Shown piece after piece: positions 5,830 through 26,022 of a stretch of 32,000 bases of DNA. Under the pieces are notes generated by a model, which saw only the letters and a program-made list of their open reading frames with translations, was not told the DNA's origin and did not search any database. Origin of the DNA: Ktedonobacterales bacterium (GTDB lineage Bacteria > Chloroflexota > Ktedonobacteria > Ktedonobacterales > JADMIN01); the NCBI GenBank assembly GCA_030167145.1, contig CP126532.1, positions 1,770,001 through 1,802,000 on the forward strand, written 5' to 3'. Numbering within the stretch: position 1 is the first letter of the stretch; every line of letters begins with the position of its first letter. Position numbers and translations under genes: made by a program.

Positions 5830-8472
5830 TCACTCACCCCGCGCATCCGTATCCGCGCTAGCGAACTGCCCCAGCAGCGGATCGTAGTAGCGCGCGTGAT
5901 CGTAGTCGAGGCCCGTCGTCGCATCCCCTTGCTGCCCGGTGAAGCCCTTCGCCGTCGGCATCGCCCCACTACTATAGCGCACACCCCCATACGGCGCATA
6001 CCGCGCGGTGGACGTGACGCTGCCACTCGTGCTGAGCGCCGCCGTGACACTCCCCAGCCCGTCTTGCGCCAGGTAGCTCAGCGTGCCCCCGGCGTTGACC
6101 ACCGTGCAGACGCCGGGCACGCTGTAGTACTTGGTCGTCGTCACCGTGCTGCCATTCGCGGCGATCTCTTCGAGGCCGCCCGCCAGATAGTACGTCCGCG
6201 TCGTCAGGCTGCTGGTGATGGTCTTCTGCTCCACCCGCTCGCCTGCGCCATCATACAACTCGTCGGCCTGGGTGGCGGGACTGCTCGGCGCATTCTGCCA
6301 GTGGGTCAGCCGCCGCTCAGCATCGTAGCTCAGTTGCGCCCCTGTTTGGGTGCCGGAGCACGTCGTGCCGCTGCTCGGCGCACGGCAGACCAGATCCCCC
6401 GCCGCATCGTAGCTGCCGCTGTAGCCGCCCGTGCTGGTCGCCGTCGCCGCATGCAGATGCGCTGGGTCACCATAGCTATAGCTGCCCTGCGTCGTGGTGC
6501 TCGTCAGCCGGTTCTGCGCGTCGTAGCTGAAGCTGCTGCTGTAATACGCCGCCGTCAGTGTCCCCGCCGCCAGCCCGCTGCCACACGACGGCGTGCCGCT
6601 GCTGCCCGCCCAGGTCAGCCGGTTCTGCGCATCATAGCAGAACGTCTGGTGGTCCTGGCCGGCGGGCAGCGTCGTGTAGGCGCTCGTCACGTTGCCCACC
6701 GCGTCGAAGCTGCGCGCCAGGGCGAATTCGGTCGTACTGCCCGCCAGCACGCTCAGGTTGGTGAGGCGCAGGTCGGTGTCATAGGTCGCGCTCCACGAGT
6801 ACGTGTTGTTGGCCAGGCTCGCCCCCGTCGGCTTGCCCGCCGCCCCCGCGCTGTTGGTATAGCTCAGGTTCAGCGCCAGATTGGCCGTCGGCGTCGTCGC
6901 GTTCTGCAGCCAGCCGTAGCTGGTGTAGCTATAGCCGAGCGTCTCGCCATCGGTATAGGTCACCGTCGTTGGCTGCCCGGCGTCGTTGTAGCCGTAGCCC
7001 ACGTTATAGGTCACCAGCTCGGTCGTCGTCTGCTTCAGCAGCGTCACCTGCCCCCGCGCATCGTAGCTGTAGCTGTACGCCCCGCTCAGCGGATCGCTCG
7101 CCGTCCCACCCGTGAAGCTCTCGCTGGTCAGCCGCCCTTTGCCCTGATTGCCGCTGGCGGTGCTGTCGTAGCCATAGGTCACATACGCCCCGCTGCCGCT
7201 ATTCGTGGTGTTGCGCCACAGCGGGCGGTTCTGCCCATCGTAGCCGATCCACACCATGCCGCCGCTGGGTCGCGGATCCTGCGTGGAGAGCAGGTTGCCG
7301 TTGGCGTCGTAGGTGTACGCCCAGCCGTTGCCCAGGTCGGCGTCGTTCAGCGTCAGCGCCCGCCCCAACAAGTCATAGGTGCTGCTGGTCTGCATGCTGG
7401 TCGAGAGGCCCGCGCCACCGGAGAGCGCCGGTCCCGTCACGCTGAGCGTATCGCCCAGCCAGTCGTATTTCGACGACGTGACCCCATACAAACTATACCC
7501 ACTGGCGCTCGTGCCCGTGAACGTCTCGACGTAGCGCGTATGGCCGAAGCCATCCACCAGTTGTGTGCGCTGGTGGCTGTTGGCGTCCACCACTGTCGTC
7601 GCCTCGTACCAGTTGGTATCGCCGACGTTCACCCCCTGTGGCTGCGCCTCGCTGTAGCTGGTGTTCGTCACATTGCCCAGCATATCACTCGCCGCAACCA
7701 CCCGCCCCAGCCCGTCGTAGCTCTGGCTGCTCAGCGGCTTGCTCAGATCCGGTCGGAAGTAGCGCGGCGCGCAATCCGCCTGGGTGTAGCCCACGAAATA
7801 CGGGTCGCTCTGATACTGCTGCCGCCCGCTGGCATCACAGGTGGTGTACTGCACCACGAAGGTGCAGGCCCCACCGCTGTAGTTCTGCGGCTTCACCGTC
7901 TCCACCGCCCGGCCCCAGCCGTCGTAATACGTCGCGCTGGTCACCGTCGTCGTGCCGGAGAGCCGCTGCGTCGCCAGCAGCGCGGTGCAGGGTTCGCTCG
8001 CCCCCGTCGTCGCGCAGGTCACCTGATAGCTATAGCTCGTCGTCGGACTGCTCAGCGTATCGCTGTAGCCCGGCTGCGCCGTCGCCGTCAGCCGCCCCAG
8101 CGCGTCATAGGCGTAGCTCGTCGTCTGGCCGTTGGCGTCGCTGCTGCTGGTCAGCCACGTGCCCCAGCCGTTGGTCGCGTCCGGGCTGTTGGGATTCGCG
8201 CCATCCGTCGTATAGTTGAAGCTGCTGCTCTCATCGGTCGTGCTCGTCAACGCCTGGGTGATCTGCGTCGGCAGCGCGGAGTACAGCCCATCAAACTGCG
8301 CGCAAGCCGTATAGGCCACCGAGGCAATTGTGCAATTGGTCGCGTCGGTGTGCTGGGTGTTGCCCGCCACCGCGTCGGCGTCGCGCACCCCCAGCAGATT
8401 GCCGTTGCTGTCATAGGTTCGCGTCGTGCTCACCTGCCCATCCTGCGCCAGATTGCCGAGCGTGCCGAGCAC
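5830..8472 (-). pseudogene. Rhs/YD-repeat core remnant, truncated at both ends (no N-terminal region, no toxin tip)
   Basis: 880 aa of YD repeats (YDxxGN/YDALGRL motifs). It is divergent from the main Rhs, not a copy. The frame opens just after a TGA (~8487) right behind the upstream gene; the track start is a GTG with no RBS. It ends ...ARYYDPLLGQFASADTDARGE*, about 25 codons short of the GGLNRYAYVGGNPE..DPxGH core end seen in the other copies. Confidence 0.65.
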
Positions 8473-10234: not shown

Positions 10235-11077
10235 CTACTCTAGCGCTACCGCCCATTGAAAAGGGTGACCGGTGGCACGCTCCCACTTTGCAATGGCTTC
10301 GCGCAAGCGCGGCGCATTGCGCTCATAGAGTTCCTGGTTCGTGGCTAGTGTACCTGAGGGTGGATCAGCTAACGTGATCACGAGCGGTGGGATGGCTCCT
10401 TCGCGGTCATCCCAGGTGAGTTGGGGGTTCTGCTGCCGTAACTGCTTCCAGTTCTCACGGACTTCGGCAAGTACAGCGCTGTTATCCCGCTGAAACACCG
10501 AGACAACCCCGAAGCGCAAGCGCGCGGTCCAGGGGGCAAGACCTTCATCCCGCACTCGCTGCGCATCCTCGCCGGTTGTCCCTGCCGAGAGCCGCAAGGA
10601 GCCAACATTGCGCAGCCAGCGCTGGCGCAGCGTTCCCTGCTCATCGCGCACCGAGGCCAGCACATCCAATTGGATACCGGCACCTCTGACATAGGGCAGC
10701 GGCACCACCCGCTCCTCTAGACGTTCCAGCAAGTCAGGGAGGGTGTCAGACTCGACAGAGAAGGGCGGGCCAAGGACGCTTGGGAAAGTGGTTTGATATG
10801 ACCCCCGTATTGTGTTCCGAACAGAGGCAACGGAAGCAAACGCCTCGGCAAACAGACGTATCTGTCGCGCAAGAAACACGCCGACCTGTGTTTCCCCTTT
10901 CAGCCCGCCTACTCCTATCGCCATTGCGCCAAGTTCAGCCAGGTCGTCGTAATACCAGGTATCCAACCACAACGACAGGATTTCCTTGCCAAGCTCCCCA
11001 TCGAAGAGACCATAGTTGGTATAGGCCTCGGGATGGATGCCTGTCCCATCCCGTTGACTGACATGTGACGATGGCAT
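10235..11077 (-). CDS. Putative immunity protein for the upstream orphan Rhs-CT (no recognisable family)
   Basis: 280-aa ORF with a strong RBS (AAAGGAGAG-4 nt-ATG at 11077), downstream of the toxin ORF. The assignment is positional only. Confidence 0.5.
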   Translation of the reverse strand: MPSSHVSQRDGTGIHPEAYTNYGLFDGELGKEILSLWLDTWYYDDLAELGAMAIGVGGLKGETQVGVFLARQIRLFAEAFASVASVRNTIRGSYQTTFPSVLGPPFSVESDTLPDLLERLEERVVPLPYVRGAGIQLDVLASVRDEQGTLRQRWLRNVGSLRLSAGTTGEDAQRVRDEGLAPWTARLRFGVVSVFQRDNSAVLAEVRENWKQLRQQNPQLTWDDREGAIPPLVITLADPPSGTLATNQELYERNAPRLREAIAKWERATGHPFQWAVALE

Positions 11078-11114: not shown

Positions 11115-11176
11115 GCACTTTGCCTAAAGCACTTTGCCTAAAGCACTTTGCCTAAAGCACTTTGCCTAAAGCACTT
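11115..11176. repeat. Tandem repeat, 14-bp unit GCACTTTGCCTAAA x 4.4
   Basis: Four perfect units (11115-11170) plus the partial unit gcactt. It lies in the 147-bp gap between the toxin stop (11225) and the immunity start (11077). Confidence 0.9.
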
Positions 11177-13100: not shown

Positions 13101-14411
13101 TCATAGTCCACTCATAGGAACATCCGGAAGGTAATTCGGATCGCCAGTGTAGCTGTTGTTCGGAAGTTCATTAGCTTGCACTATTTGATCCCCCAACCAG
13201 TTGCCTACCAACGCCCCACCAAATGCACCAACAGCAGCACCAACAAATGGGATAGGTATCAGTGCTTGGCCAATGGCGGCGCCAGTGAAGGCAAATGCGG
13301 TTGTAAATGTTGCGTGTAGTGCCCCAATTCCCACAGCTTGAGCGACACCATCTTGTGGACGAGCAGCGTAATAGCTGGTGCTTGTGTTATACCAATCGGC
13401 AGCGAAGCCTGCAGCTGCTAGAAGGAGGGCCACCCCATCAACAACCCATCCATAGCGTTCAAGAAACGCTATCTTGCCTAGACTGCCAGGCGCTCGACGC
13501 CAATATGAATCCACTACGGTGCCATCCGCGCGAGTATAACCTTGCACAAATACCGTCTTCTTGTTCAGAGCCGCAATGGCACGAGCAATCCTTTCTTGTT
13601 CAAAACCAACGACTATACCTTGACCAGCCAAAAAATCACCCTCATTATGTAGCAACCACCGATAGATATTGAATGGGGAGCTGGTCTGGCCACTACTACC
13701 ACTCCCACCGTCACAATCATCGCACAGCCGGTGCCCACTCGGATCGGTCTTGGTCTCCGGGTTGCCACCGACATACGCATACCGGTTCAGCCCACCCTTG
13801 GCGTCCGTATCCGCTTGCGCGAACTGCCCCACCGCCGGGTCGTAGTAGCGTGCCCCGTAATAATCCAACCCCGTGCTCGCGTCGGCATACTGCCCAGTGA
13901 AGCCCCGCGCCGTGGGCATCGTCCCCGACGAGTAGCGGTAGGTGCCATACGGCCCATAGAGCAGGCTCGCCGTCACACTGGCGCTGCCCCCAGCCAGCGC
14001 CACGCTCACACTCCCCAGCCCATCGCTCGCCAGATAGCTCACGGTGCCACCGACGTTGAGCGCCGTCACGATGCCCGGCACGGCATAATACTTGGTGACC
14101 GTCGTGCCGGTGATCTCCTCCAATCCCCCCGCCAGGTAGTACGTCCGCGTGGTGGCGCCGCCGCTCACCACCTTCTGCCCGATGCGCTGCCCCTCGCCGT
14201 CGTAGGCATAGCTCACCGTCGTCGTCGGGCTGCTCGGCGCGTTCTGCCAGCTCACCAGCCGCCCTTGGGCATCGTAGGTGAGCTGCTGCCCGGTCGGCGT
14301 GCCTGCACACGTCGTCAGGTAGCTAGGCGCACGGTAGGTCATGTTCCCTGCCGCGTCATAGCTGGCGGTGTAGTATGGCCCACCGCTACCATTGCTGCCC
14401 GCCGCTGTCAC
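13101..14411 (-). CDS. Orphan Rhs C-terminal fragment: ~235 aa of core end plus a glycine-zipper membrane-type toxin tail
   Basis: (V)TAAGSNGSGGPYYTASYDAAGNMTYRAPSYLTTC... is colinear and nearly identical with the main Rhs up to ...GGNPETKTDPSGH. The tail ends in a Gly/Ala-zipper hydrophobic segment: AVGIGALHATFTTAFAFTGAAIGQALIPIPFVGAAVGAFGGALVGNWLG. GTG start with no RBS; the frame opens at a TGA ~14458. Confidence 0.8.
   Translation of the reverse strand: MTAAGSNGSGGPYYTASYDAAGNMTYRAPSYLTTCAGTPTGQQLTYDAQGRLVSWQNAPSSPTTTVSYAYDGEGQRIGQKVVSGGATTRTYYLAGGLEEITGTTVTKYYAVPGIVTALNVGGTVSYLASDGLGSVSVALAGGSASVTASLLYGPYGTYRYSSGTMPTARGFTGQYADASTGLDYYGARYYDPAVGQFAQADTDAKGGLNRYAYVGGNPETKTDPSGHRLCDDCDGGSGSSGQTSSPFNIYRWLLHNEGDFLAGQGIVVGFEQERIARAIAALNKKTVFVQGYTRADGTVVDSYWRRAPGSLGKIAFLERYGWVVDGVALLLAAAGFAADWYNTSTSYYAARPQDGVAQAVGIGALHATFTTAFAFTGAAIGQALIPIPFVGAAVGAFGGALVGNWLGDQIVQANELPNNSYTGDPNYLPDVPMSGL
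13738..13895. repeat. Rhs core-end homology block, 158 bp, 100% identical to 9930-10087
   Basis: See 9930-10087. Upstream of it, 13900-14420 is additionally near-identical to ~16600-17100 of the main rhs gene; for example, caccgtcgtgccggtgatctcctccaatccccccgccaggtagtacgtccg occurs in both. Confidence 0.9.
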
Positions 14412-14517: not shown

Positions 14518-15480
14518 CTACCCATACCAGCCATACTCCCGTGCCATCCGCTCAGACCGTGAACGATTACCAATCTGGAGGAGCTTCTCGCGTTCGTAGA
14601 GCTGCAAGTATGCGTTGCGTGTCTCCAGGTCCAGGCCGTAGAGCCGCTCCAAGAAGTGGTCGAGGTCTGCACGTAGTTCCGGCAGATCCTGCCACCACTG
14701 CTCCTCGACCACAGGATACCGCTCATGCAGATACCCCATCAGCAGATGCACCGTCCACAAGGCGAGCGTCCTGGCACGGTCAGTGGCGCGCTCAGGATGG
14801 GCAGGAGCCACGCCAGTTAATGCACCCACCGCCCCCAGTTGCCCCAGCGCATAGACGAGTCCATCTTGATACCCCAGCAGCACCTGCAACTCTGACGCCA
14901 CGGTAAGCAATTCATTATCCTGCGCTGTCATGTTGTCGAAATCCACAATCTCTCCGCGAAACAAGATCGCTTCAGGGTTGAACGAATAGCTCCCCGTGAC
15001 CGCAATCGTCGCCTGCAGCGCACGCCGCAGGGCGGGGGCCGCCACAGGATCGCCTAATCGTCCTAACAGCCCGGGAATGTCAGCCTGCCACGATTCCAAG
15101 AAGCTCGCTAGTTGTTCTCGCCAATCGTCGTAAGGCGGCTCGCCAGGTAGAAATTCGCCGAGCAGTTCCATCAACGGCTGCACCGCCCGCTTGTCACCTG
15201 CATGCGCGAGAGCAATACGACATGCTTGCCGCTCAGCAACATCAGAACTCTCCATGAGAGATGCGAGGTAATCCCTGGCTTGCGGTATCCTCCGGCAGCC
15301 CAGCGCGAAGAGTGCAAACAGCCTATCGTTCCCCTCTGCCTCGTGGTGCATGCGCATCAGCGTCGGCACATCAGGACTGCCCCATCGGCTGTGCAGCCGC
15401 TCTAGCTGCTCTTCCATGTCATGCTCGCCGTAATCCAGCATGGCTGCGGCATAAGTCAAACCGGGATCCTGCTCGTCCAT
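14518..15480 (-). CDS. HEAT-like repeat protein; putative cognate immunity for the Rhs deaminase tip
   Basis: 320 aa, with GGAGG 5 nt upstream of the ATG at 15480. It is the first gene downstream of the main rhs. HEAT/PBS-lyase-like repeat strings: SSDVAERQACRIALAHAGDKRAVQPLMELL and LGRLGDPVAAPALRRAL. Confidence 0.55.
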   Translation of the reverse strand: MDEQDPGLTYAAAMLDYGEHDMEEQLERLHSRWGSPDVPTLMRMHHEAEGNDRLFALFALGCRRIPQARDYLASLMESSDVAERQACRIALAHAGDKRAVQPLMELLGEFLPGEPPYDDWREQLASFLESWQADIPGLLGRLGDPVAAPALRRALQATIAVTGSYSFNPEAILFRGEIVDFDNMTAQDNELLTVASELQVLLGYQDGLVYALGQLGAVGALTGVAPAHPERATDRARTLALWTVHLLMGYLHERYPVVEEQWWQDLPELRADLDHFLERLYGLDLETRNAYLQLYEREKLLQIGNRSRSERMAREYGWYG

Positions 15481-15607: not shown

Positions 15608-18600
15608 CTACTGTTGACTACTATATAGTATAGGCTTGCCACCATCCCCTACCAACCAGACATTCAGTATCACGTTGACATTTCCTTGTCCTGCTATTTG
15701 TAAGCCTCCTAGCCATACGCCATCGAGAAGTTGGGGTCTGCAGAATGGAGAGCATGGTTCTTTTCCAGTCAGCAGATCAACCGTAATATCTCCCGTGTAT
15801 CCAGCCGCAACTTGTCCTTGAATCCACAAAGCTGCTGCTCGCAACACTTGCACCTCCGCATGCATTGTATTGTTACGTCTGCCAGTACCGAGAACAGGGC
15901 CGAACTGCGGAGACACTACTGCGCCCGATGCATCGCTAATAAAGGCAGCGGCAATTGCGGGCTTTCCTAGTTCTCGCCCAAAGTTCGATTGACGTTGGTC
16001 TACTAACTTGGCCAAGCTCGCGAGCATTGACAGTCTGTCTGCCCTGCGCCCTCCGCCATTGCCGCCACTATTCCCGCCCCCGCCTGCCGCCGCTACCTCG
16101 GCGCGTGACTGCACTGTCTCATCAGGCGCACCGGCCATGCCCCCATAGGGCAGGTCGGGATCCAGATTCGTATCTTGCAGGATCCTTTCGCCGTTTTTCT
16201 GCGTAACCCACTCGCTCTGGCCGTCTGGGGAGATATCATGTACTGTGCCATGCGCGTCGGTATACTGCACATCGCCCCAGTAGCTGTTGTTGCTGGAATC
16301 TCCACTCCAGGCGTTCGGCATACCACCGCAACAGTCGGGGGCGCCAGGTCCATCATTCGCCCAGCCACCTTCAAATGCAGCCGGGTCAACGTCATCTTGC
16401 ATGTGCCCGGTCGGGTCAATGCGTGTCTCGGGATTGCCGCCCACATACGCATACCGGTTCAGCCCATCGAGCATGGTATCGGCTTGCGCAAACTGGCCCA
16501 CCGCCGGGTCGTAGTACCGTGCCCCGTAATAGTCCAGCCCCGTCGCCGCGTCGGCATACTGCCCGGTGAAACCCCGCGCCGTCGGCATCGTCCCACCACT
16601 GCTGTAGCGGAAGGTGCCATACGGCCCGTAGAGCGCGGAGGCGGTCACACTCGCGCTGCCCCCAGCGAACGCCGTGCTCACACTCCCCAGTCCATCGCTC
16701 GCTAGATAACTCACCGTCCCCGCGACATTCACTGCCGTCACGATGCCCGGCACCGCATAATACTTGCTCACCGTCGTGCCGGTGATCTCCTCCAATCCCC
16801 CCGCCAGGTAGTACGTCCGTGTCGTCACGCCGCCGCTCACCACCTTCTGCCCGATGCGCTGCCCCTCGCCGTCGTAGGCATACGTCACCGTCGTCGTCGG
16901 GCTGCTCGGCGCGTTCTGCCAGCTCGCCAGCCGCCCCGCCGTATCGTAGGTGAGTTGCTGCCCCGTCGGCGTCCCGCTGCACGTCGTCAGGTAGCTCGGC
17001 GCACGGCAGGTCATATCGCCCGCCGCGTCATAGCTGGCGGTGTAGTACGGCCCGCCGCTGCCATTGCTGCCCGCCGCCGTCACCGCGTCCAGGTGCGTGT
17101 TCGCCACGCCATACGTGTACGCGCCCAGGCTGCCATTCGTGATGCGGTCGAGAGTGTCATAGCCGTAGCTATAGGTGTAGCTCGCCCCGCTCAAAGTCGT
17201 GCTCGGCGTCACCGCTGGCGTGCAACTCGGTGTCCCAGCGGTTCCCGCCCAGGTCAGCCGGTTCTGCTCGTCATAGCAGAAGGCTTGCGTATCTGTGCCG
17301 GTGGGCAGTGTGGTGCTGACGCTGGTGACATTGCTCACCGCGTCATACGTGCGCGCGCTGCTGAAGAGCGTCGTGCCGCTGTGGGTGAAGTTCAGGCTGG
17401 TCAGCCGCAGGTCGGCGTCATGGCTCGCGCCGAAGTTGACGCCGTCACCCAGCGTCGCTCCCGTTGGCAATCCAGCCGGACCACCCCGGTCGTAGGTGGC
17501 GTAGCTGATCCCCGTCACCACGTTCTGCGCCGAGCCACCGCTGGGCGTCCGTGTCACCGAGTCCAGCCAGTCCGCGCTATTATAGGTGTAGCTCAGCAGT
17601 TCGTTGTCAGCATAGGTGATACCCGTCTGCTGTCCCGCATCGTTATAGCTGAAGCTGAAGCTATAGTTTGCGGAATCTACCGTCACGTCCCAGATGGTGC
17701 GGTTGCCTCGCGCGTCATAGGCAAACGTATAGCTGCCAGCGCCAAAACTCGCCCCGGTATTGAATGTCTCGCTGGTCAGTCGCCCCTTGCCATTATTGCC
17801 GCCTGCCGTGCTATCGTATCCCCAGGTTGCGTAGGGACTGCTGCCACCAGCATTCACGCTGTGCCACACCGGACGGTTCAGCGGATCGTAGCCAATATAT
17901 ACCGTCCCCGCCCCACCGCGCGCATCCACCGACTTCGTCAGATTGCCGTTCGCGTCATAGGTGTAGGACTCACTTCCGCGATCCGGATCGTTCAGGCTCG
18001 TCTGTTGTCCCGCCGCGTCGTAGCCGAAGGTGGTCGTGCTCGTGCCGTTGGGATGTGTGATCGTCGTCAGGTTCCCAGCGTAGTCGTAGCTGTATGTCGT
18101 CCCCGAATAGAAGGTGTAGCCCGTACCGCTCGTGCCACTCGTGCGCACATCCTCGATGGTCCGTCCCAATGAGTCAACGATGCTGTAAACCCGGTGGCTC
18201 AGTGCATCGGTCACATTCTTCTGCTCGTCGCCGATACCACTGCCATCCCAGTTCGTCACCACCACATACGAGGTACTGGTGGTCTTCGAGTACGCATCCG
18301 TGGCGCTGATCACCCGCCCCAGGCCGTCATAGCCAGCGGATGTGCCCGGCTCGCTCGCGTCTGGTGCGGCGAAGGCCGCCGAGCCAGGGCCGCCGGTATA
18401 TGACGAGGTGTTGTAGCTGATGCTGGCGAAGATGTTGCGCTCCGAAGGGTCGTACTCTGCATAGCGGACTGCATCGTAGCCCGGCCCTGGTATGCGCGTC
18501 TCCGCAAGATTACCATAGCCATCGTAGAACGAGCGCGTCGTAATCGCCGTGCTTCCGTCCACCTGCTGTGTCTGATCCACCTCGACACATGGCGCCTGTG

Positions 18601-21600
18601 GCGCCGTCCCACTGCACCAATCGGTGTATGACCAGGTTGTCTTGCCTTGCCCGCTCGGCTCCCCCGGTACATCTGGCAGTGTCTTACTGGTCATCCGCCC
18701 CAGCGCATCGTACCCGACGGTTGTCGTCTGGCCGTTGGGGTCCGTGGTCGAGGTTGGCCATATCCCGAAGCTGCCACTTGCTGTCGTGATATAGCCCGTC
18801 AAGATGGACTGCGCCTTCGCGTTCGTCACCGAAACCACCAGCGCGTGAAAGGCGCTGTCGTAGGCGGTGCAGGCAGTGTAGAGTGTACTATTGACCGTGC
18901 AGCCTTTGTGCGTCGCGTCCCCCGCGTTGCCATCGGGATCCGTCATGGCGATCTGGTTGCCATACGTGTCGTAGACCGCCGTCGTTTCTTTCTGCCCGCT
19001 GGCGTCGCCGAAGTTGGGTGGCGTTCCACAGAAGGCAAAGCGATCTACCTTGGTGGTCTCACCCAGCGTCAGCCCGCCGCTCTGCCCACCGGCCCAGCCC
19101 TGGTTGTCATAGCTAGTAAAAGCGCACTGGCTATGCGGCGTGTTCTGAAGGTTCTGGCTGCCCGTCACATACGTCAGATTGGGGAAATCAATCAGATACG
19201 TTCCGGTCGCGCTTGTCGAGGTCACGCTGACCGCATCGTTCCAGATGTAGTCGGTGTGCTGGTCAATCAGCGTCGCACTATTGGTTAGGGTTCCGCCACC
19301 GTTGCTCGTGGTGACCACATCGGTCGTGCGCCCATAGGAGTCATAGCTGTACGTTGTCGTCTTCTGTGGCACGGTGCCGCTGCCGCCATCATAGGTATAC
19401 TCATCTGTGCGTGTCATCTGGATATCGCAGACCGCCACCGGATCGCCGTGGTCCAACTCGCTCACAAGATTCCCATTCCAGTTCCCGTAATCCGGGGAGG
19501 ATGACGTGCCACTCACCCCACTGGGTGGGCATGTCTCCTGGTATTGGGCCGTCGTCTTCTTGAGCAGTGTCGTGCCATTCGTGTCGTAATAATCCGTCTC
19601 GAACTCATGCCCGTGTGCCGAATTGCCAACATCGGTGCGATTGGTATTTCCCCACCAGGGCGAGTTATGGCACGGCGGCGTAAACGCTTTGCAGGTCACC
19701 TGGCTCGTGTCATACAATCCGTAGCCCTCGGTCGCATAATAATGATGCTTCACCACCGAGTCATCAGGATTGGTCACATCAGCCTCGGTGAAGCCCATAT
19801 ACTTGCCGTTGTAATAGTCCAGGTAGTCACCGTCGTTCTGATTGCCCCAATACATCCCTGCCACACAGTCAGGGCACTCCTGTGCTGCCAGGGGATAGGT
19901 CAAATCATACTGATAGCTCGCCGTCCCAGTGATGAGCACATTCCCGCTCGAAGCTGCGCGGTACTCCTGTGTCTGTTGCTGGGTCAGAACCGCATGGCTC
20001 CAATTCTGATCGTCCGCCTCGTTACACGGATACCCACTCTGATGGCTGTTGCAGTAGAGCGGATCAGGGGTATTGGGATTGTTGCTCGTGCCACCAGGAA
20101 CGCCATGTGTATTGTTGCGCCCATTATCCCAGGAGAACGTCTGCGCCAGTCCCAGCCCATTGCTCGCGGAGGCGAGATAGCGGCTATTGCCAGGCAAACT
20201 CTCTTCCCACAAGAGGCACCCGCTGCTGTTACCAGTATTCCAAGATGGCCCGCAGTTATCCGATGACACCGGATGATACGCATCGTCCTCATAATACTGA
20301 GTGACCGTCGTGTAGCCGAAAGTGCGTGTTGGCAGCGCTGTTGTGCCATCGTCACCCAGTTCGATGATCTGCGTCAGATCGAGCTCGCCTGCCACCGATT
20401 CATCTTTTCCAGTCACAGGATCTGCGATCTTGACGCTGGTGCCCGCATAATCTTCTTCATGCGGTGTTTGCTCATACCCAAGTTGATAGTCGCGCAACGT
20501 GTTCCAGGTGCTATTGTTGTAGACCTGCACCTGAACATCATTGAGCACATACGTGCTCTGCACGTCTGGCGCGGCCAGCCCACCGCTGCCGGATAGATCT
20601 ATCGGATCGTCGCAACGCAGGTTCCCATTCGCCGAGCAGCTTGAACCAGCCACATGTGTCACCCCATGCCCGGAGACAAAGTTCACCCGCATCAAAGGCG
20701 ACCAGCTTGACCCGATACACATACTCTGCGCGTTGTGGCAATTCGGCGAATCCCATTCGATGGTTTTCAGCACAGCGTCGCGAATGTAGGAGTGCCCCGA
20801 TTTGCTTTCCGTATCTTGCTGATAGGTGATATGAATCTGATTGCCTTGGGGATCGGTGATCAGATCCAGGTTCCAGTTTGAAATGTAGTCGTTTCCGGTT
20901 CCATAGTAATATTCGAGCGAGTCCGAGGTACAACCGAACTCCTCCATAATCCCATTCGTCAGGAAGACACGGAAGCATGGCGGATGCGCACCCCCACCAT
21001 CTGGCAGGGTAAGTGGCCCCGTGTACGAATAGATTTTGGCATGGTTCTCCGGTGCGGCATGCCACTGCACTGCGCCAGACGTTATCGAGTTGGCTGTATC
21101 ATCATAATAGGTCTTCTCTGTGATATTTGGCGGAATCAGTTCTGCCGCTGTGCCGAAGGGGTCGCTGAGTTGCCAGCTATCCTCCCAGCCGTTGCCACAG
21201 GTAGGACAGGTAGCGAGCGTATTGTGCTCAGCCCAGGAGATCGCTCCGAGTGAAAGGTTCCAGCCCTCACCAGTCCACCCCGTCGCTGCCTGCACGTTGT
21301 GCTGCTCGCTCACGCTGGCGCTACTATAGCTTAGCGTCACTGGCGGCGTGAGTCCCCCCGGCCCCGTGGGTACATCAATGGCAATACTGTCGGAGAGTGC
21401 TCCCGCGTTCAAGTCGGTATTAAAGGGATCTGGTTTACCAAATGTGGCAACAGGGCTGTTGGTATTGAAGGCCGCGGCCACACTTGGCGTACCGAGTTGT
21501 GTCGTAACCATCAGGGTCTGGGCGGTGGAATCGAAGGTCGCATTTTGCCAGTTTGGCGCGCCAAACTGACTTTCGGCCATAGTCGGCGCAGTAGGATCAG

Positions 21601-22351
21601 AAAGGTCTTGCTGTCGGCCAGAGGTGATTTGTCTTGGGGTCGGCGCGGTAATCGGCGCCAATGCCGTGCCATCGGGCAACAAACCATTGAAGGTGACGAA
21701 TACCTGTGAGAGGTCGAGTGCGCTGTCCTGTCTGCCGAGATGCAACTTGAGCGCCATGGGGGCATGCAGTCCGTGCGAAACCAGCACTCCACGTGTATCC
21801 ACCAATTGCAGCAGATAACTACCGAAGCTCACGATACCAGTGCCTCCCGCGTTCGTGCCGGAAGCTGGGGCAATCTGGCTGATCTCAAGGCTCAGGTTTC
21901 CGCCCGCTGCGGCTACATCGGCGCTGGTAACAGCGTTAGCTGGTACATCGACCTCGAAACGTCCATCACTTCCTGTGAAACGCGCGGCCTTCCCCGGCGT
22001 CAATGCCAGGATTCCCGGCAACATGGGGATAATTCCCACACGTCGCAGTGATTGTGGCGGCCCAGCAGGCGTGTGGGCGCTGGTATGCTGCGTATGCGGA
22101 TGTGATACAGATCTGGCATGCGAGCGTGGATCAAAGAGATTGAGCTTCCCGCCGTTACCCGGCCCCGCCGCCAGCGCCACCGGCACGTGCGCCCCGAAGC
22201 CTGCCTGCGCCAGTTGCCCGAACGCGCCACTCACCAGCAACGCCACCAGCAGCAACGGCATCCCGCCCCGTCGCGCCAGCCGCGCCGCCAACCGCGTGCC
22301 CCGCGCCCGCAGCCCATCCATCCACGCTCCTGCGCGCCAACCGCTCATCAT
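15608..22351 (-). CDS. Full-length Rhs/YD-repeat polymorphic toxin with a Sec-like N-terminus and a C-terminal deaminase-like toxin domain
   Basis: ORF 15608..22417. The preferred start is ATGATG at 22351/22348, behind GGGAGGAG. It has the hydrophobic signal MPLLLVALLVSGAFGQLAQA and dozens of YD repeats. The core end is ...RYYDPAVGQFAQADTMLDGLNRYAYVGGNPETRIDPTGH (H at 16403-16405). A 264-aa tip follows, containing HAE (15854-15862) and PCSPFC (15740-15757). Confidence 0.9.
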   Translation of the reverse strand: MMSGWRAGAWMDGLRARGTRLAARLARRGGMPLLLVALLVSGAFGQLAQAGFGAHVPVALAAGPGNGGKLNLFDPRSHARSVSHPHTQHTSAHTPAGPPQSLRRVGIIPMLPGILALTPGKAARFTGSDGRFEVDVPANAVTSADVAAAGGNLSLEISQIAPASGTNAGGTGIVSFGSYLLQLVDTRGVLVSHGLHAPMALKLHLGRQDSALDLSQVFVTFNGLLPDGTALAPITAPTPRQITSGRQQDLSDPTAPTMAESQFGAPNWQNATFDSTAQTLMVTTQLGTPSVAAAFNTNSPVATFGKPDPFNTDLNAGALSDSIAIDVPTGPGGLTPPVTLSYSSASVSEQHNVQAATGWTGEGWNLSLGAISWAEHNTLATCPTCGNGWEDSWQLSDPFGTAAELIPPNITEKTYYDDTANSITSGAVQWHAAPENHAKIYSYTGPLTLPDGGGAHPPCFRVFLTNGIMEEFGCTSDSLEYYYGTGNDYISNWNLDLITDPQGNQIHITYQQDTESKSGHSYIRDAVLKTIEWDSPNCHNAQSMCIGSSWSPLMRVNFVSGHGVTHVAGSSCSANGNLRCDDPIDLSGSGGLAAPDVQSTYVLNDVQVQVYNNSTWNTLRDYQLGYEQTPHEEDYAGTSVKIADPVTGKDESVAGELDLTQIIELGDDGTTALPTRTFGYTTVTQYYEDDAYHPVSSDNCGPSWNTGNSSGCLLWEESLPGNSRYLASASNGLGLAQTFSWDNGRNNTHGVPGGTSNNPNTPDPLYCNSHQSGYPCNEADDQNWSHAVLTQQQTQEYRAASSGNVLITGTASYQYDLTYPLAAQECPDCVAGMYWGNQNDGDYLDYYNGKYMGFTEADVTNPDDSVVKHHYYATEGYGLYDTSQVTCKAFTPPCHNSPWWGNTNRTDVGNSAHGHEFETDYYDTNGTTLLKKTTAQYQETCPPSGVSGTSSSPDYGNWNGNLVSELDHGDPVAVCDIQMTRTDEYTYDGGSGTVPQKTTTYSYDSYGRTTDVVTTSNGGGTLTNSATLIDQHTDYIWNDAVSVTSTSATGTYLIDFPNLTYVTGSQNLQNTPHSQCAFTSYDNQGWAGGQSGGLTLGETTKVDRFAFCGTPPNFGDASGQKETTAVYDTYGNQIAMTDPDGNAGDATHKGCTVNSTLYTACTAYDSAFHALVVSVTNAKAQSILTGYITTASGSFGIWPTSTTDPNGQTTTVGYDALGRMTSKTLPDVPGEPSGQGKTTWSYTDWCSGTAPQAPCVEVDQTQQVDGSTAITTRSFYDGYGNLAETRIPGPGYDAVRYAEYDPSERNIFASISYNTSSYTGGPGSAAFAAPDASEPGTSAGYDGLGRVISATDAYSKTTSTSYVVVTNWDGSGIGDEQKNVTDALSHRVYSIVDSLGRTIEDVRTSGTSGTGYTFYSGTTYSYDYAGNLTTITHPNGTSTTTFGYDAAGQQTSLNDPDRGSESYTYDANGNLTKSVDARGGAGTVYIGYDPLNRPVWHSVNAGGSSPYATWGYDSTAGGNNGKGRLTSETFNTGASFGAGSYTFAYDARGNRTIWDVTVDSANYSFSFSYNDAGQQTGITYADNELLSYTYNSADWLDSVTRTPSGGSAQNVVTGISYATYDRGGPAGLPTGATLGDGVNFGASHDADLRLTSLNFTHSGTTLFSSARTYDAVSNVTSVSTTLPTGTDTQAFCYDEQNRLTWAGTAGTPSCTPAVTPSTTLSGASYTYSYGYDTLDRITNGSLGAYTYGVANTHLDAVTAAGSNGSGGPYYTASYDAAGDMTCRAPSYLTTCSGTPTGQQLTYDTAGRLASWQNAPSSPTTTVTYAYDGEGQRIGQKVVSGGVTTRTYYLAGGLEEITGTTVSKYYAVPGIVTAVNVAGTVSYLASDGLGSVSTAFAGGSASVTASALYGPYGTFRYSSGGTMPTARGFTGQYADAATGLDYYGARYYDPAVGQFAQADTMLDGLNRYAYVGGNPETRIDPTGHMQDDVDPAAFEGGWANDGPGAPDCCGGMPNAWSGDSSNNSYWGDVQYTDAHGTVHDISPDGQSEWVTQKNGERILQDTNLDPDLPYGGMAGAPDETVQSRAEVAAAGGGGNSGGNGGGRRADRLSMLASLAKLVDQRQSNFGRELGKPAIAAAFISDASGAVVSPQFGPVLGTGRRNNTMHAEVQVLRAAALWIQGQVAAGYTGDITVDLLTGKEPCSPFCRPQLLDGVWLGGLQIAGQGNVNVILNVWLVGDGGKPILYSSQQ

Positions 22352-22432
22352 CGTCTCCTCCCGCCAAACCACCGCCCCCATGCGCCTCAGCACGCATGTG
22401 TAGCCACAGCCCAGCAAAAGGATACATGACTC

Positions 22433-22483: not shown

Positions 22484-22879
22484 TCACGTCCTCCTCACAC
22501 CCCCGCCTTCCTCCTCCCTTATCAATCCCAGCCGCCACGTCCGTGCCCCCGCCTGTCGCATCCCCGACACCCTCAGCTTCCGGCACACCCGCTTGCAATG
22601 CGTATTCACCGTATGCCACGAAATCGTCAGTTGCTCCGCAATCTCCGCATACGTCAGCCCCGCACACGCCAGCCGCAGCACCTCCAACTCCCGCGCCGAA
22701 AGCGCTGGCCCCATGCCGCCATGCCCCGCTGTCGCCTGCTTCTCCTGCTTCTCCTGCTCGATCATCGCCAACACACTCGCTCTCCACTCACGAGAACAGC
22801 CTGCCATCCCGCCAAGCGAGATCACCTGCCGCCCCCTCACCATCCTTCCCGACTCCTTGCCGGGCGCCAGACGCGCCAT
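22484..22879 (-). CDS. LuxR/GerE-family HTH transcriptional regulator (small, no receiver domain)
   Basis: LSARELEVLRLACAGLTYAEIAEQLTISWHTVNTHCKRVCRKLRV is a textbook LuxR C-terminal HTH. Same strand as the rhs gene and directly upstream of it. Confidence 0.8.
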   Translation of the reverse strand: MARLAPGKESGRMVRGRQVISLGGMAGCSREWRASVLAMIEQEKQEKQATAGHGGMGPALSARELEVLRLACAGLTYAEIAEQLTISWHTVNTHCKRVCRKLRVSGMRQAGARTWRLGLIREEEGGGVRRT

Positions 22880-23180
22880 GTGCCACCGACCCCAGGCTGC
22901 GGTTCATTCCATTTGCCTCGCTCGCATACCCACTCCCTTCGCTCGCCAAAATCATCCCCTTGCTCACATCGCGACACGAGTATACACCCCCTCCCCGCTA
23001 CACACAAGCTGCACCCGCTCCCTGCAACCGTCCTCCCCGCCATCCATCTCCACCGCGCCATTCCCTGCCGGCCTTTGACCGTCATTGTCCCCTCGCCATC
23101 CACCACCCCCCATGCTACACTGCCACTAGCCCAACAGCGACCCACCCGCCCCCGCGAAGGAAGCGCGCCATGCACATGAA

Positions 23181-23967
23181 GAATCGGCCACAAGTCACCA
23201 ATTGGGCAGACATTCCTCTCCGCCCGCGCGATGAAAATCGGCAGAATCGGCAACTCCCGTGGGGCGGACATTCGTGTCTGCCATGGTGCGAAAATCGGCA
23301 GAATCGGCAACGCCGGCAACTGCGCGTGCGCGAAATTGCGGCGAAAACGGCGAAAAATCTCCCGTTACTTCCAGCCAACTCCGGTCACATCTCCCCACAC
23401 CACCACGAAAATCGGCAGAATCGGCAACTGGCATCCCATCCAAAATCGGCCATTTCGGCCACTGCCCATCATACAAACATCAAAAATCGGCAGAATCGGC
23501 AACTCCGCGCCAACCTCCCTCGCGGGATTACCCGTGGCATTCATGCTACGATCTCGCTTTACCACCCAACCCGCCCTCCGCGCCAAATCGAAAAATCGGC
23601 AGAATCGGCAACGCCGGCCACTGCACGTGCGCGAAATTGCGGCGAAAACGGCGAAAATTCTCCAGCCATGTCCCCTCATCACCACCGCAAAAATCGGCAA
23701 AATCGGCAACTCCGCGCCAACCGCTCTCGCGGGATTACCCGTGGCATTCATGCTACGTCCTTCCCTCATCACCCATCCCGCCCTCCGCGCAAATCGGCAG
23801 AATCGGCAACTGCTTCAGTGGGGCAGACATTCCTGTCTGCCAGCATACGAAAATCGGCCACTTCGGCCACTGCGCCCATCCCGGCATTCATGCCCCACCG
23901 CTGTGCTCCGGCCATGTATGGCCGAGAGTGGCGCACGAATGCTGTGCTCCGGCCATGTATGGCCGAG
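23181..23967. repeat. Non-coding mosaic repeat array built on a 21-22 nt anchor (A/G)AAAATCGGCAGAATCGGCAAC
   Basis: Canonical anchors start at 23233, 23290, 23407, 23482, 23591, 23689 and 23791. Variant anchors (AAAATCGGCCAYTTCGGCCAC / GAATCGGCCAC) start at 23181, 23442 and 23849. Recurrent inter-anchor modules: hairpins at 23263-23282 and 23822-23841; a 50-nt module at 23312 and 23613; an 80-nt module at 23504 and 23711; and a 27-nt duplicate at 23900 and 23941. Confidence 0.85.
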
Positions 23968-24030
23968 GTGGCCGCTGGACAACCCACCTGGCAACCCCAC
24001 GTATAGTTCAGAGTGTGGAGTTGAGGATGA

Positions 24031-26022
24031 GTGGCAGCCAGGAGTCACAGCGTGACAAACCAACGCACCAAGCGCAAACCAAACCAGCCGAACACAACCG
24101 AAGAGACGCCCACCGCAGCGCAACGTGCCCCCAGAGTCCCGCTCAAGCGCGTGCTCGCGCTGCTTCGCCCCTACTCCGGGCGGCTCGTCATTGCCGCGAT
24201 CCTCCTGGTCATCACCACCAGCCTCGGCCTCGTCTTCCCCCTGGTCATCCGCTCGCTGCTCAATACCATTCTCGTCCAGCACGACGAACACCTGCTCAAC
24301 CTGATCGTCGAAGGGCTGCTCATCCTCTTCGTCCTCCAGGCGCTGATCGGCGCCGTCCAAGGCTACCTCGTCACCGCCCTCGGCGAACGGCTCTCCTTCG
24401 ACCTCCGCACCCGCCTCTTCCGCCACCTCCAGATGCTCCCACTCAGCTTCTTCGACCACCGCCGCACCGGCGAACTCATGAGCCGCGTCACCAACGACGT
24501 CACCCTCCTGCAAACCTCGCTCACCAGCAACGTCCTGCCCATCGCCTCCCAGGTCGTCATGCTCGTTGGCAGCATCGCCATCGTCGCCCTCATCAACTGG
24601 CGTATCACCCTCGTCGCCCTCATCGTCACGCCCGTCGCCGTCCTCACCATCGGCCTCCTGGGGCGGCGCATTCGCCAGACCACGCGCGGCGTGCAGGAAG
24701 GGCTGGGCGACGCGGGCACCGTGCTCGAAGAAGCGCTCTCCGCCCCGCGCGTCGTCAAAGCCTTCACCCGCGAAGACTACGAAACCGAACGCTTCACCAC
24801 ACGCATGCGCGGCTCACTCCGCGCTGCCCTCCGCCGCGCCGTCGCGCAGGCGATGTTGGGACCGCTCAGCGGCTTCGTCGGCTTCACCGCCGTCCTCATC
24901 GTCATCTGGTTTGGCGGCCGCGAAGTGCTGGCCGGGCGGCTCACAGCGGGCGATCTCGTCGCCTTCATCTTCTACCTCTTCCTCATCATCAGCCCGCTCA
25001 TCTCGCTCTCCAATCTCTACTCACAGATTCAGGCCGCGCTGGCAGCGGCAGAACGTGTCTTCGAGCTATTGGACGAACCAGTCGAACCTGCGCTCACCAC
25101 AGCCTCCGCCGCGCCGCTCCCACCCTTGCCGCCACTCACCGGCCACATCGCCTTCGACCACGTCTCCTTCGCCTATCCCGCCGACCCGAACCACAGCGCC
25201 AGCGACTCCGCCCCCGCGCAAGCCTCGCCGCCCTCGCAGCCACGCCCCGCCGTGCTGCGCAACGTCACCTTCGCGGCGATGCCGGGGCAGGTCGTCGCCA
25301 TCGTCGGACCCAGCGGCGCGGGCAAAACCACCATGCTCAGCCTCCTGCTCCGCCTCTACGAACTGGATGCCGGCGCCATCCGCGTGGATGACACAGACAT
25401 CCGCAACGTGCAGGTGCGTTCACTCCGCGAGCAAATGGCCGTCGTCCCGCAGGAGCCAGCCATCTTCGGCGATTCGATAGCCGAGAACATCCGCTACGGA
25501 CGGCTGGACGCCTCCGACGAGCAGGTGCGCGCCGCCGCCGCTGCCGCCAATGCGCTGGCATTCATCGAACAACTGCCCGACGGCATGCGGACCATCGTTG
25601 GCGAGCGCGGCGTCAAACTCTCCGCCGGACAGCGCCAGCGTATCGCCATCGCCCGCGCGCTGCTCCACGATCCCCGCATCCTGCTGCTCGACGAAGCGAC
25701 CGCCGCGCTGGATAACGAATCCGAGGCGCTCGTGCAGGACGCCCTCAACCACCTGATGCGCGGTCGCACCACCCTCGTCGTCGCCCACCGCCTCACCACC
25801 ATCGAGCGCGCCGACCTGATTCTGGTACTCAACGACGGCGCGATAGTCGAGCGCGGCACGCACACCGAACTCCTGGCGCGCGAGGGCCTCTACGCACGCC
25901 TCTATACCCGCAACTTCGAGGACCTCGACAGCACGCCCTCCGTAGGGGCGTCCGGCGGACGCCCTTCCTCCGCCATGCAAAACGCCATTGTCACCGTACA
26001 CGAATCCCTCAGCAGCGGATAA
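24031..26022 (+). CDS. ABC exporter, fused permease/ATPase (MsbA/MdlB-type half transporter)
   Basis: N-terminal six-helix TMD (...LVIAAILLVITTSLGLVFPLVIR...). Walker A GPSGAGKTT, signature LSAGQRQRIAIARAL, Walker B ILLLDEATAALD, and an H-loop in TLVVAHRL. The GTG start at 24031 is uncertain. Confidence 0.9.
   Translation: MAARSHSVTNQRTKRKPNQPNTTEETPTAAQRAPRVPLKRVLALLRPYSGRLVIAAILLVITTSLGLVFPLVIRSLLNTILVQHDEHLLNLIVEGLLILFVLQALIGAVQGYLVTALGERLSFDLRTRLFRHLQMLPLSFFDHRRTGELMSRVTNDVTLLQTSLTSNVLPIASQVVMLVGSIAIVALINWRITLVALIVTPVAVLTIGLLGRRIRQTTRGVQEGLGDAGTVLEEALSAPRVVKAFTREDYETERFTTRMRGSLRAALRRAVAQAMLGPLSGFVGFTAVLIVIWFGGREVLAGRLTAGDLVAFIFYLFLIISPLISLSNLYSQIQAALAAAERVFELLDEPVEPALTTASAAPLPPLPPLTGHIAFDHVSFAYPADPNHSASDSAPAQASPPSQPRPAVLRNVTFAAMPGQVVAIVGPSGAGKTTMLSLLLRLYELDAGAIRVDDTDIRNVQVRSLREQMAVVPQEPAIFGDSIAENIRYGRLDASDEQVRAAAAAANALAFIEQLPDGMRTIVGERGVKLSAGQRQRIAIARALLHDPRILLLDEATAALDNESEALVQDALNHLMRGRTTLVVAHRLTTIERADLILVLNDGAIVERGTHTELLAREGLYARLYTRNFEDLDSTPSVGASGGRPSSAMQNAIVTVHESLSSG

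Follow-up and report, generated by a model that had tools for sequence, protein, structure and literature searches.

Interspersed repeats assembled as mosaics of short modules have so far been described mainly from proteobacteria, firmicutes and mycobacteria, and no description of a mosaic repeat for the Chloroflexota turned up in the literature searches made for this study. Here we describe an array of approximately 800 bp at positions 23181-23967 of a 32,000-nucleotide stretch (the window) of contig CP126532.1, which belongs to the metagenome-assembled genome (MAG) of a Ktedonobacterales bacterium (class Ktedonobacteria, phylum Chloroflexota; the source genome). In this array a 21-nt sequence, termed the anchor, recurs on one strand and is separated by segments drawn from a small set of cargo modules. 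On balance, we consider it probable that the array is one of several members of a dispersed family of modular repeat arrays of the Ktedonobacterales, with no tie to the LuxR-type, MerR and ABC exporter genes in its neighbourhood. The family is apparently undescribed, as the literature, including a search for the anchor sequence itself, provided no description of it.

Judged by its architecture, the array may be grouped in kind with the interspersed mosaic and modular repeats, namely the bacterial interspersed mosaic elements (BIMEs) built on repetitive extragenic palindromes (REPs), the BOX elements, the mycobacterial interspersed repetitive units (MIRUs) and the Rickettsia palindromic elements (RPEs). 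Like a BIME, it is extragenic, dispersed and a mosaic of a short core and few recurring motifs whose composition varies from locus to locus, with at least four arrays in the 5.07-Mb source genome. The REP core, however, is an imperfect palindrome whose copies alternate in orientation, whereas the anchor is a non-palindromic direct duplication of a 9-mer which keeps to one strand in every array, palindromes being present only in the cargo modules H, h2 and D7. Furthermore, BIMEs are mostly located at gene 3' ends or between the genes of an operon, while the arrays lie downstream of putative promoters and 5' of genes. In Streptococcus pneumoniae, BOX elements (boxA-boxB(n)-boxC) occupy intergenic sites, frequently close to the start of a gene; they are transcribed and can influence the genes beside them. 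The array shares with them its modularity, a variable number of internal modules and an intergenic position near gene starts, yet BOX possesses A and C end modules and one long hairpin, whereas in the array the anchor stands between the modules, the hairpins are small and local, and the 3' block V-h2-D7 is preferred without always being terminal. The MIRUs of Supply and co-workers are reportedly intergenic arrays of mycobacteria which are oriented with the adjacent transcription and have open reading frames (ORFs) running through them, traits which they share with the present arrays; they are tandem repeats of a single 46-100-bp unit, in contrast to the heterogeneous and irregular units that are joined here by the 21-nt anchor. 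RPEs are short repeats located in frame within genes, where they supply a peptide at tolerant sites, and copies belonging to the present family occur in this manner in UvrA and 2-oxoglutarate dehydrogenase E1, although RPEs are single palindromic units of approximately 100-150 bp rather than an anchor with cargo.

Two further types of system invite comparison. The regulatory RNAs CsrB, RsmZ and CrcZ resemble the array in carrying many short motif copies at irregular spacing with hairpins between them, in having their own promoter and in existing as paralogous copies. Their motif is GGA or CA, as opposed to the 21 nt of the array motif, which also occurs in coding DNA, is not predicted to be unusually accessible, lacks an Rfam match and is known here from sequence alone. 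Arrays of clustered regularly interspaced short palindromic repeats (CRISPR) likewise alternate a short repeat with other segments in one orientation. This identity was rejected on the basis of the spacing of 34-117 nt, the recurrence of the "spacers", the non-palindromic 21-nt repeat and the lack of cas genes nearby, none being present among the window ORFs scanned against Pfam (a part of the ORFs, some of which have no Pfam match). A simple satellite or MIRU-type minisatellite was rejected since Tandem Repeats Finder detected no array-wide period, and a miniature inverted-repeat transposable element since neither the units nor the array as a whole is spanned by inverted repeats. A first-pass annotation of the same DNA had already deemed the array neither CRISPR-like nor a simple satellite, a view borne out by the irregular spacing, the recurring segments and the absence of a constant period.

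The array and its modules

Seven copies of AAAATCGGCA(G/A)AATCGGCAAC are present between 23181 and 23967, on the + strand only. With at most one mismatch allowed, the 19-mer AATCGGCAGAATCGGCAAC was found seven times (at 23236, 23293, 23410, 23485, 23594, 23692 and 23792, all +), confined within the 32-kb window to 23236-23810 and against an expectation of 0 derived from 100 dinucleotide shuffles. The array and its seven anchors are thus present as the first-pass annotation had reported them. Of the three variant anchors listed there, two are full copies of AAAATCGGCCAYTTCGGCCAC on the + strand (23442-23462 and 23850-23870), while the third proved to be a half copy only, at the left edge of the array. 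A repeat search recovered the anchors as a 32-nt family of nine members with successive steps of 57, 117, 34, 41, 109, 98, 100 and 60 nt, so that the spacing ranges from 34 to 117 nt rather than over the previously proposed 50-110 bp or so. A third anchor type, AAATTGCGGCGAAAACGGCGAAAA, which belongs to the same period-9 class, lies within each copy of a GCGAAA-rich module; this G-type anchor, AAATTGCGGCGAAAACGGCGAAAAA in the window, occurs with the same sequence in three further arrays introduced below, L096 (3 copies), L101 and L103. Each anchor type consists of a tandem pair of 9-mers with CGGC (AATCGGCAG/AATCGGCAA, ATCGGCCAT/TTCGGCCAC and GCGGCGAAA/ACGGCGAAA).

As regards the cargo, the repeat search recovered the two copies of the GCGAAA-rich module as a 72-nt repeat which includes an anchor (96% identity) and the two copies of the CGCGGGATTACCCGTGGCATTCATGCTACG-containing (GGGATTACCCGTGGCATTCATGCTACG) module, termed P, as a 144-nt repeat with an anchor (81% identity), the internal duplications having offsets of 301 nt and 207 nt. 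The hairpin GGC(A/G)GACATTC(C/G)TGTCTGCC of module H is present twice and accompanied by a degenerate copy, and a 27-nt unit (D7) is duplicated without any difference at the 3' end. These four recurrences had all been recognised by the first-pass annotation. The only tandem arrays detected by Tandem Repeats Finder were 9-nt two-copy micro-arrays inside the anchors, and the repeat search returned 0 inverted repeat pairs in 22800-24100. The block H-V-h2-D7 is collinear with positions 85-210 of L096 and also terminates the arrays of L101 and L103.

Dispersal of the array family

Because gene callers translate the arrays, translated array frames could be employed as protein queries, and their matches were other arrays only (P0002; P0123-P0126), the second query of this type, against 1.84 billion representative proteins, yielding four further array ORFs. 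P0123, P0124 and P0126 correspond to the annotated source-genome ORFs OJF49_002964, OJF49_000444 and OJF49_004563. The source genome, a Ktedonobacterales MAG, harbours at least four arrays, at approximately 0.50, 1.78 and 4.75 Mb and at OJF49_002964; the DNA was read for three of these (the window, L101 and L102), OJF49_002964 being represented only by its annotated ORF, which contains the diagnostic peptides. The arrays sit upstream of unrelated genes, which encode the ABC exporter, an acetyl-CoA carboxyltransferase and phosphoenolpyruvate carboxykinase (PEPCK). L101 is an array of approximately 600 nt at 0.50 Mb upstream of the acetyl-CoA carboxyltransferase gene, and it ends approximately 25 nt before the ribosome-binding site (RBS) of this next gene. 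L102, at 4.75 Mb, is a short array composed of anchors and one P module only, located upstream of the PEPCK gene and divergent from its other neighbour.

Comparable arrays were found on two soil contigs. The 957-nt forest-soil contig L096, which the first translated query retrieved through a spurious ORF, carries, directly 5' of a hydantoinase/oxoprolinase-type gene, four canonical anchors, three G-type anchors and variant anchors on a single strand, with an H hairpin, two P modules, a GGCATTCATGCC mini-hairpin and a D7 unit as cargo. L103 holds a complete array with a module set as in the window array, including four tandem 9-mers and 3.5 copies of CCCGTCACAT. The larger arrays therefore share one small cargo set (H, G, P, V, h2 and D7). 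Among the explanations offered by the first-pass annotation, that of dispersed or nested repeats is the best fit, as anchors and cargo occur at three or more other places in the source genome and on two metagenome contigs, and the presence of arrays beside different genes speaks against an element specific to this locus.

The orthologous ABC/MerR loci of Ktedonobacterales relatives (L097 and L105-L107; 75-77% protein identity) have short upstream regions in which no anchors were found, and the regions upstream of the ABC orthologues in L097, L098 and L105 contain no sequence alignable with the window. The contig of the closest relative (L104; 78%) begins 63 nt upstream of the ABC gene and is uninformative as to the presence of an array, while 22 kb of a second genome from the same sample contained no anchors. 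Since the array is missing at the readable ABC/MerR orthologues and arrays stand beside unrelated genes, that at the ABC gene represents a lineage-specific gain, and these comparisons indicate that it is not part of the conserved regulation of this gene. The contigs of some relatives start at or inside the ABC gene region (L104 1-63 and L088 1-153), which may reflect assembly breaks at arrays.

Conservation of the anchor core across classes

The core of the anchor is a tandem 9-mer, (N)CGGCA-NNN twice. Twenty canonical anchors of the Ktedonobacterales type, from at least three genomes, are approximately 100% identical over AAAATCGGCAGAATCGGCAACT and only 40-60% identical in their flanks, and aligned copies of homologous cargo modules have visibly drifted between arrays, which marks the anchor as the constrained part. 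A genome collection was scanned with the exact 19-mer, and among the matches listed most were chance singletons, the others including two Chloroflexia MAGs, with four contigs and one contig respectively, and a Ktedonobacterales MAG. In these MAGs the matches belong to arrays located between genes and built on a degenerate form of the motif (for example AAATGCGGCAAGAATGGCAAT and AAAGCGGCAGAAACGGCAAG). Sixty-three period-9 sites from ten arrays gave the consensus AAAAATCGGCAGAATCGGCAAC, whose information content resides mainly in the two CGGCA blocks; when the Chloroflexota DNA read here was scanned with the corresponding weight matrix, strong matches were almost confined to arrays, each of which had its matches in a single orientation, and shuffled sequence yielded practically none. 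The core is all that the Chloroflexia arrays share with those of the Ktedonobacterales type, their spacers being unrelated, and H, P, h2, D7, G and V occur as cargo in the latter arrays only. A metagenome collection that excludes the source contig yielded six loci when scanned with the 21-mer. Scanned viral contigs contained two chance singletons, blastn of the window array against plasmids and phages gave no match and that of a Chloroflexia array chance matches only, and no protein matched a concatenated six-frame translation. In another Ktedonobacterales MAG, three to four anchors recur every 30 nt between two convergent genes (L005 6673-6770), just after an ORF which by eye resembles a phage terminase large subunit.

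Several known recognition sequences were compared with the anchor by eye and dismissed. A sigma-54 -24/-12 promoter would require a GG-to-GC spacing 2 nt longer than that present; a sigma-28 -10 element on the reverse strand (GCCGATAA) has no -35 TAAA and the wrong orientation in the arrays between tandem genes; the period and the phylum are wrong for a Spo0A 0A box; there is no similarity to DnaA boxes, iterons or parS sites, and the arrays are dispersed; and a reverse-strand sigma-70 promoter inside the anchor is seen at one locus only (L090), probably by chance.

Anchor copies within protein-encoding genes

Among the metagenome loci is the gene for 2-oxoglutarate dehydrogenase E1 on two soil contigs (L092 and L095), which carries two in-frame canonical anchors (L095 2187 onward). 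They fall in the linker between the N-terminal and E1 domains and encode EKSAESAT and PAESAT. The UvrA protein of the source genome (L101 15361-18471, - strand; 1036 aa) differs from solved UvrA structures by two insertions, the second of which, of approximately 53 aa (residues ~487-540), lies at a point without residues in these structures and is encoded by DNA with two in-frame anchor-type motifs in the sense direction, GAAAACGGCAAAAACGGCAAC and AACGGCAAGAATGGCAAT. The first insertion (residues 214-253) was considered as an anchor copy and rejected, as it has ESAT-like peptides but its DNA is not anchor-like.

Coding status and depletion of stop triplets

GC content at codon positions 1/2/3 is 0.63/0.56/0.58 in the array as compared to 0.70/0.46/0.85 in the ABC gene, the 3-base periodicity is 2.5 as compared to 36.6, the anchors of the window array fall in two different phases, and the array has no Pfam match. 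The flat codon-position GC, the lack of periodicity and the two phases uphold the earlier statement that the array does not look coding, and a conventional protein gene is excluded. The "hypothetical proteins" annotated across the arrays by JGI and NCBI (window 23195-23476 (-) and 23534-24055 (+); WIG60216.1, WIG57699.1 and WIG61814.1) are almost certainly spurious. A Shine-Dalgarno-like sequence and start codon head the window array as well as those of L101 (ATG 10001) and L103 (GTG 158); with no codon signal, translation from this start is to be regarded as a possibility only.

Between 23259 and 24003 (+) the three forward frames are open together over approximately 750 nt. Counted in all frames and compared with dinucleotide-preserving shuffles, sense stop triplets are fewer than expected in arrays of the Ktedonobacterales type, with 3 observed against 11.8 expected in the window, 1 against 11.4 in L096, 4 against 11.1 in L101, 5 against 11.3 in L103 and 1 against 4.0 in L102. 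When one copy of each window module was considered, there were 0 stops against 4.6 expected, a result matched by 0.3% of shuffles. Real genes in the same DNA have observed/expected ratios of 0.53-1.07, the arrays being more depleted, and no depletion was seen on the antisense strand or in Chloroflexia arrays. Such depletion would fit translation through a leader and would equally fit modules that are tolerated when landing in genes.

Promoter-like elements, orientation and predicted RNA structure

The extended -10 element TGCTACACT precedes the arrays of the window, L101, L103, L076 and L021 by 50-250 nt, and TACACT occupies the matching relative position in L102. The form TGNTACACT has seven distinct occurrences in approximately 190 kb of Chloroflexota DNA, four of them ahead of arrays (window, L101, L076 and L021); the remaining three stand before ordinary genes, in part accompanied by a TTGCCA-type -35 element. 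As it also stands ahead of ordinary genes, TGNTACACT looks like a common strong promoter form in these Chloroflexota genomes. It is seen on the - strand at L101 4461, L102 4201 and L076 897, and a TTGCCA-type -35 element frequently precedes it by 17 nt. No homology was detected around the -10 element between arrays.

The downstream gene is co-oriented with the anchors in eight of ten arrays and convergent in two (L103 and L005). The anchors are sense-oriented in all four arrays that lie between tandem genes and in both coding insertions, that is, in six of six informative cases. In L103 a promoter-like element is followed by the array, V-h2-D7, a strong terminator hairpin and a convergent gene, a layout which suggests that the array there forms its own transcription unit. 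An additional promoter-like site lies between the array and the gene that follows it in L102, L029 and L076.

The cargo hairpins conform to one style, exemplified by H (GGCA(GACA)-UUCN-(UGUC)UGCC), h2 (GGCA-UUCA-UGCC), the GUGGCA-UUCA-UGCUAC hairpin of P and D7 (CGGCCA-UNUA-UGGCCG). Across copies, the stem of H changes only through G.U pairs compatible with the + strand, in three independent cases, and a few compensatory changes are present in h2, D7 and the P hairpin, with h2 of L103 reading AGCAT/ATGCT; as some A.C mismatches are also present, the sense strand is favoured only about 2:1. Folding of the whole array gave z of approximately -2 relative to shuffles on both strands, and hence no strand preference, while the predicted unpaired fraction was 0.47-0.49 for the anchors and 0.44-0.49 for the rest of the RNA. 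At the gathering threshold, Rfam had no match in the array, the whole window or the related arrays, the chance matches in the array having E >= 0.77. The earlier suggestion of a cluster of structured RNAs thus gains from the hairpins kept across copies and from the promoter-like element ahead of the array, and loses from the lack of an Rfam match. A T-box leader scoring 91.4 bits, as compared to a gathering score of 93, is present in a Chloroflexia MAG (L029 7212-7543) and is unrelated to the arrays.

Location of the array and features of the window

The position of the array between a LuxR-type gene and an ABC exporter gene, as first annotated, was confirmed by the flanking ORFs, which are a 131-aa GerE/LuxR-type ORF upstream (22484-22879 (-)) and an MsbA-like ABC exporter downstream (24052-26022 (+)). 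Farther out lie MerR and DUF6529 genes downstream and a large RHS protein gene upstream. The features of the array and its flanks are collected in Table 1. Pfam families on the scanned window ORFs were RHS, HEAT, GerE, ABC, MerR, DUF6529, sigma-54, PQQ and YkuD. Elsewhere in the window, a 14-nt perfect tandem repeat (GCACTTTGCCTAAA, 4.4 copies) at 11115-11176 lies immediately upstream of the start of an ORF without a Pfam match (10235-11077 (-)), for which it could be phase-variable or regulatory. A cluster of RHS/YD-repeat genes, polymorphic-toxin-like, occupies 5830-8472, 13101-14411, 14518-15480 and 15608-22417, all (-); it encodes one protein of 2269 aa with a weak SpvB match and has a HEAT-repeat ORF in its midst.

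Table 1. Features of the array and its immediate flanks (window positions).
Position	Strand	Feature	Sequence or remark
23113..23121	+	Extended -10 element, promoter-like	TGCTACACT; ~60 nt upstream of the first anchor-like sequence
23156..23172	+	Shine-Dalgarno-like sequence, then ATG (23170)	GAAGGAAG; frame stop-free to 24006
23180..23191	+	Half copy of variant anchor	AGAATCGGCCAC; left array edge
23205..23224	+	Degenerate H module	GGCAGACATTCCTCTCCGCC; broken stem
23234..23254	+	Canonical anchor A1	AAAATCGGCAGAATCGGCAAC
23263..23282	+	H hairpin	GGCGGACA-TTCG-TGTCTGCC; one G.U pair on + strand
23291..23311	+	Canonical anchor A2	
23333..23356	+	G-type anchor in GCGAAA-rich module	AAATTGCGGCGAAAACGGCGAAAAA; C-rich tail to 23407
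23408..23428	+	Canonical anchor A3	
23442..23462	+	Variant anchor V1	AAAATCGGCCATTTCGGCCAC; GGCC-N5-GGCC, possible small hairpin
23483..23503	+	Canonical anchor A4	
23521..23591	+	P module, copy 1	GGGATTACCCG; hairpin GTGGCA-TTCA-TGCTAC, C-rich tail
23592..23612	+	Canonical anchor A5	
23634..23657	+	G-type anchor, copy 2	Tail to 23689
23690..23710	+	Canonical anchor A6, G to A variant	AAAATCGGCAAAATCGGCAAC
23728..23789	+	P module, copy 2	
23790..23810	+	Canonical anchor A7	CAAATCGGCAGAATCGGCAAC
23822..23841	+	H hairpin	GGCAGACA-TTCC-TGTCTGCC
23850..23870	+	Variant anchor V2	
23883..23894	+	h2 mini-hairpin	GGCA-TTCA-TGCC
23900..23967	+	Two 27-nt D7 units	23900-23926 and 23941-23967, 100% identical; hairpin CGGCCA-TGTA-TGGCCG
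24040..24054	+	RBS and start of ABC exporter gene	AGGAG, GTG (24052); 85 nt past array

Discussion

If the array is indeed a copy of a dispersed modular family, its history and behaviour may be envisaged as follows. Arrays would grow and be reshuffled by slippage and unequal recombination between identical anchors, a process suggested by the internal 72- and 144-nt duplications, the two to four copies of the 9-mer, the tandem D7 units and the 3.5 copies of CCCGTCACAT in L103, while selection would act on the anchor itself, which a conserved partner would recognise. A sense transcript initiated at the extended -10 element at 23113-23121 may include the array, serving either as a leader of the ABC exporter of approximately 0.9 kb or as a separate upstream RNA, and it would carry small hairpins of the GGCA-UUCN-UGCC type and no stop codon in any frame.

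A number of points weigh against this reading or restrict it. Mobility is without support, since a mobilising enzyme, terminal repeats and target-site duplications were not found: no transposase was seen in approximately 90 kb around the arrays, inspection by eye revealed no direct repeat flanking the array at 23180 or 23967, and the empty orthologous sites are too diverged to define insertion junctions. Transcription of the arrays is deduced from promoter-like sequence only, the orientation statistics comprise six informative cases, and the number of arrays per genome is a lower bound, given that approximately 190 kb of relevant genomes were read. Moreover, the invariant 21-nt block with its drifting flanks and the existence of three anchor types (A, V and G) would appear to fit a functional site better than neutral junk, and the seemingly self-contained transcription unit of L103 looks like a point in favour of an RNA gene.

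This last consideration leads to the possibility, which we hold to be rather unlikely though deserving of attention, that the array specifies a functional multi-site RNA, a promoter-driven non-coding RNA or leader of approximately 0.7-0.9 kb whose 7-12 single-stranded anchors, set apart by small hairpins, would bind and titrate a conserved Chloroflexota factor. In the manner of CsrB, RsmZ and CrcZ, the factor would be an RNA-binding protein or a complementary RNA, and its targets would be the clusters in leaders (PEPCK in L102, and L043) and in coding loops. The contrast between invariant anchor and drifting cargo is in keeping with such a role, as are the two-class core, which varies in the manner of a weight matrix in the Chloroflexia arrays with their unrelated spacers, the promoter-like element ahead of arrays, the stand-alone unit with its strong terminator hairpin in L103, the pairing kept by the H, h2, D7 and P hairpins through G.U and a few compensatory changes, and the several copies per genome, as in families of sponge RNAs. 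Conversely, no raised accessibility is predicted for the anchors relative to their surroundings, folding some 2 sd below shuffled sequence occurs on both strands alike, the wobble changes favour the sense strand only weakly, a perfect identity of 19-21 nt is atypical of protein sites, no candidate binding protein was found, and Rfam offers no match. The more specific proposal, that the tandem CGGCA 9-mer is a sense-strand RNA recognition element in two or more classes of the Chloroflexota and that the arrays are decoy RNAs acting as CsrB does, is one we regard as doubtful and slightly less likely again.

A binding platform on the DNA, in which the anchors are iterated operators for a LuxR/GerE, MerR or global regulator controlling the flanking promoters, is improbable, even though a direct pair of 9-mers has the form typical of response-regulator sites, the array is situated in a divergent promoter region next to a gene for a GerE-type helix-turn-helix protein, and promoter-like sequences of the TTGACA/TAnnnT form frequently follow directly after Chloroflexia arrays. 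The 9-bp period found here differs from the 10-11 bp characteristic of tandem winged-helix or NarL-type sites, and the spacings of 34-117 nt display no helical phasing. The local LuxR/MerR platform which the first-pass annotation had entertained is rendered less likely still by the other arrays of the source genome, which lack a LuxR or MerR neighbour, and by the orthologous ABC-MerR pair of the relatives, which lacks the array; strict orientation on one strand and in-frame copies in UvrA and 2-oxoglutarate dehydrogenase E1 would also be unexpected of operators. Least probable of all, and by our estimate very unlikely, is a translated leader ORF or repetitive protein read from the start at 23156-23172 through to 24006, whose product would be a disordered basic protein or which would act as a C-rich leader shielded from Rho, coupling expression of the ABC exporter to translation. 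It would account for the depletion of sense stops in three frames beyond that of real genes, for the Shine-Dalgarno sequence and start codon that head three arrays, and for the ORFs placed over arrays by gene callers, but the codon-position GC and periodicity are those of non-coding DNA when set beside the ABC gene, a single ORF reads the anchor in two or three frames, Pfam has no match, the conservation of the anchors is that of DNA, synonymous variation being absent, and the Chloroflexia arrays contain stops.

The dispersed family that we favour unites an unusual combination of features, namely a unidirectional and non-palindromic anchor, a core present in two classes, a promoter-proximal site, three open sense frames and in-frame copies in housekeeping genes. 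Its arrays are currently annotated as hypothetical proteins and may break short-read assemblies. Should the arrays prove to be decoys, they would form part of a new global post-transcriptional circuit, of which the leader clusters (PEPCK and L043) and the coding-loop clusters would be the regulatory targets; we know of no such circuit in the Chloroflexota. Equally, if the anchor is a binding site, the 21-mer would, by means of a pull-down, provide a direct handle on a conserved factor of these bacteria.

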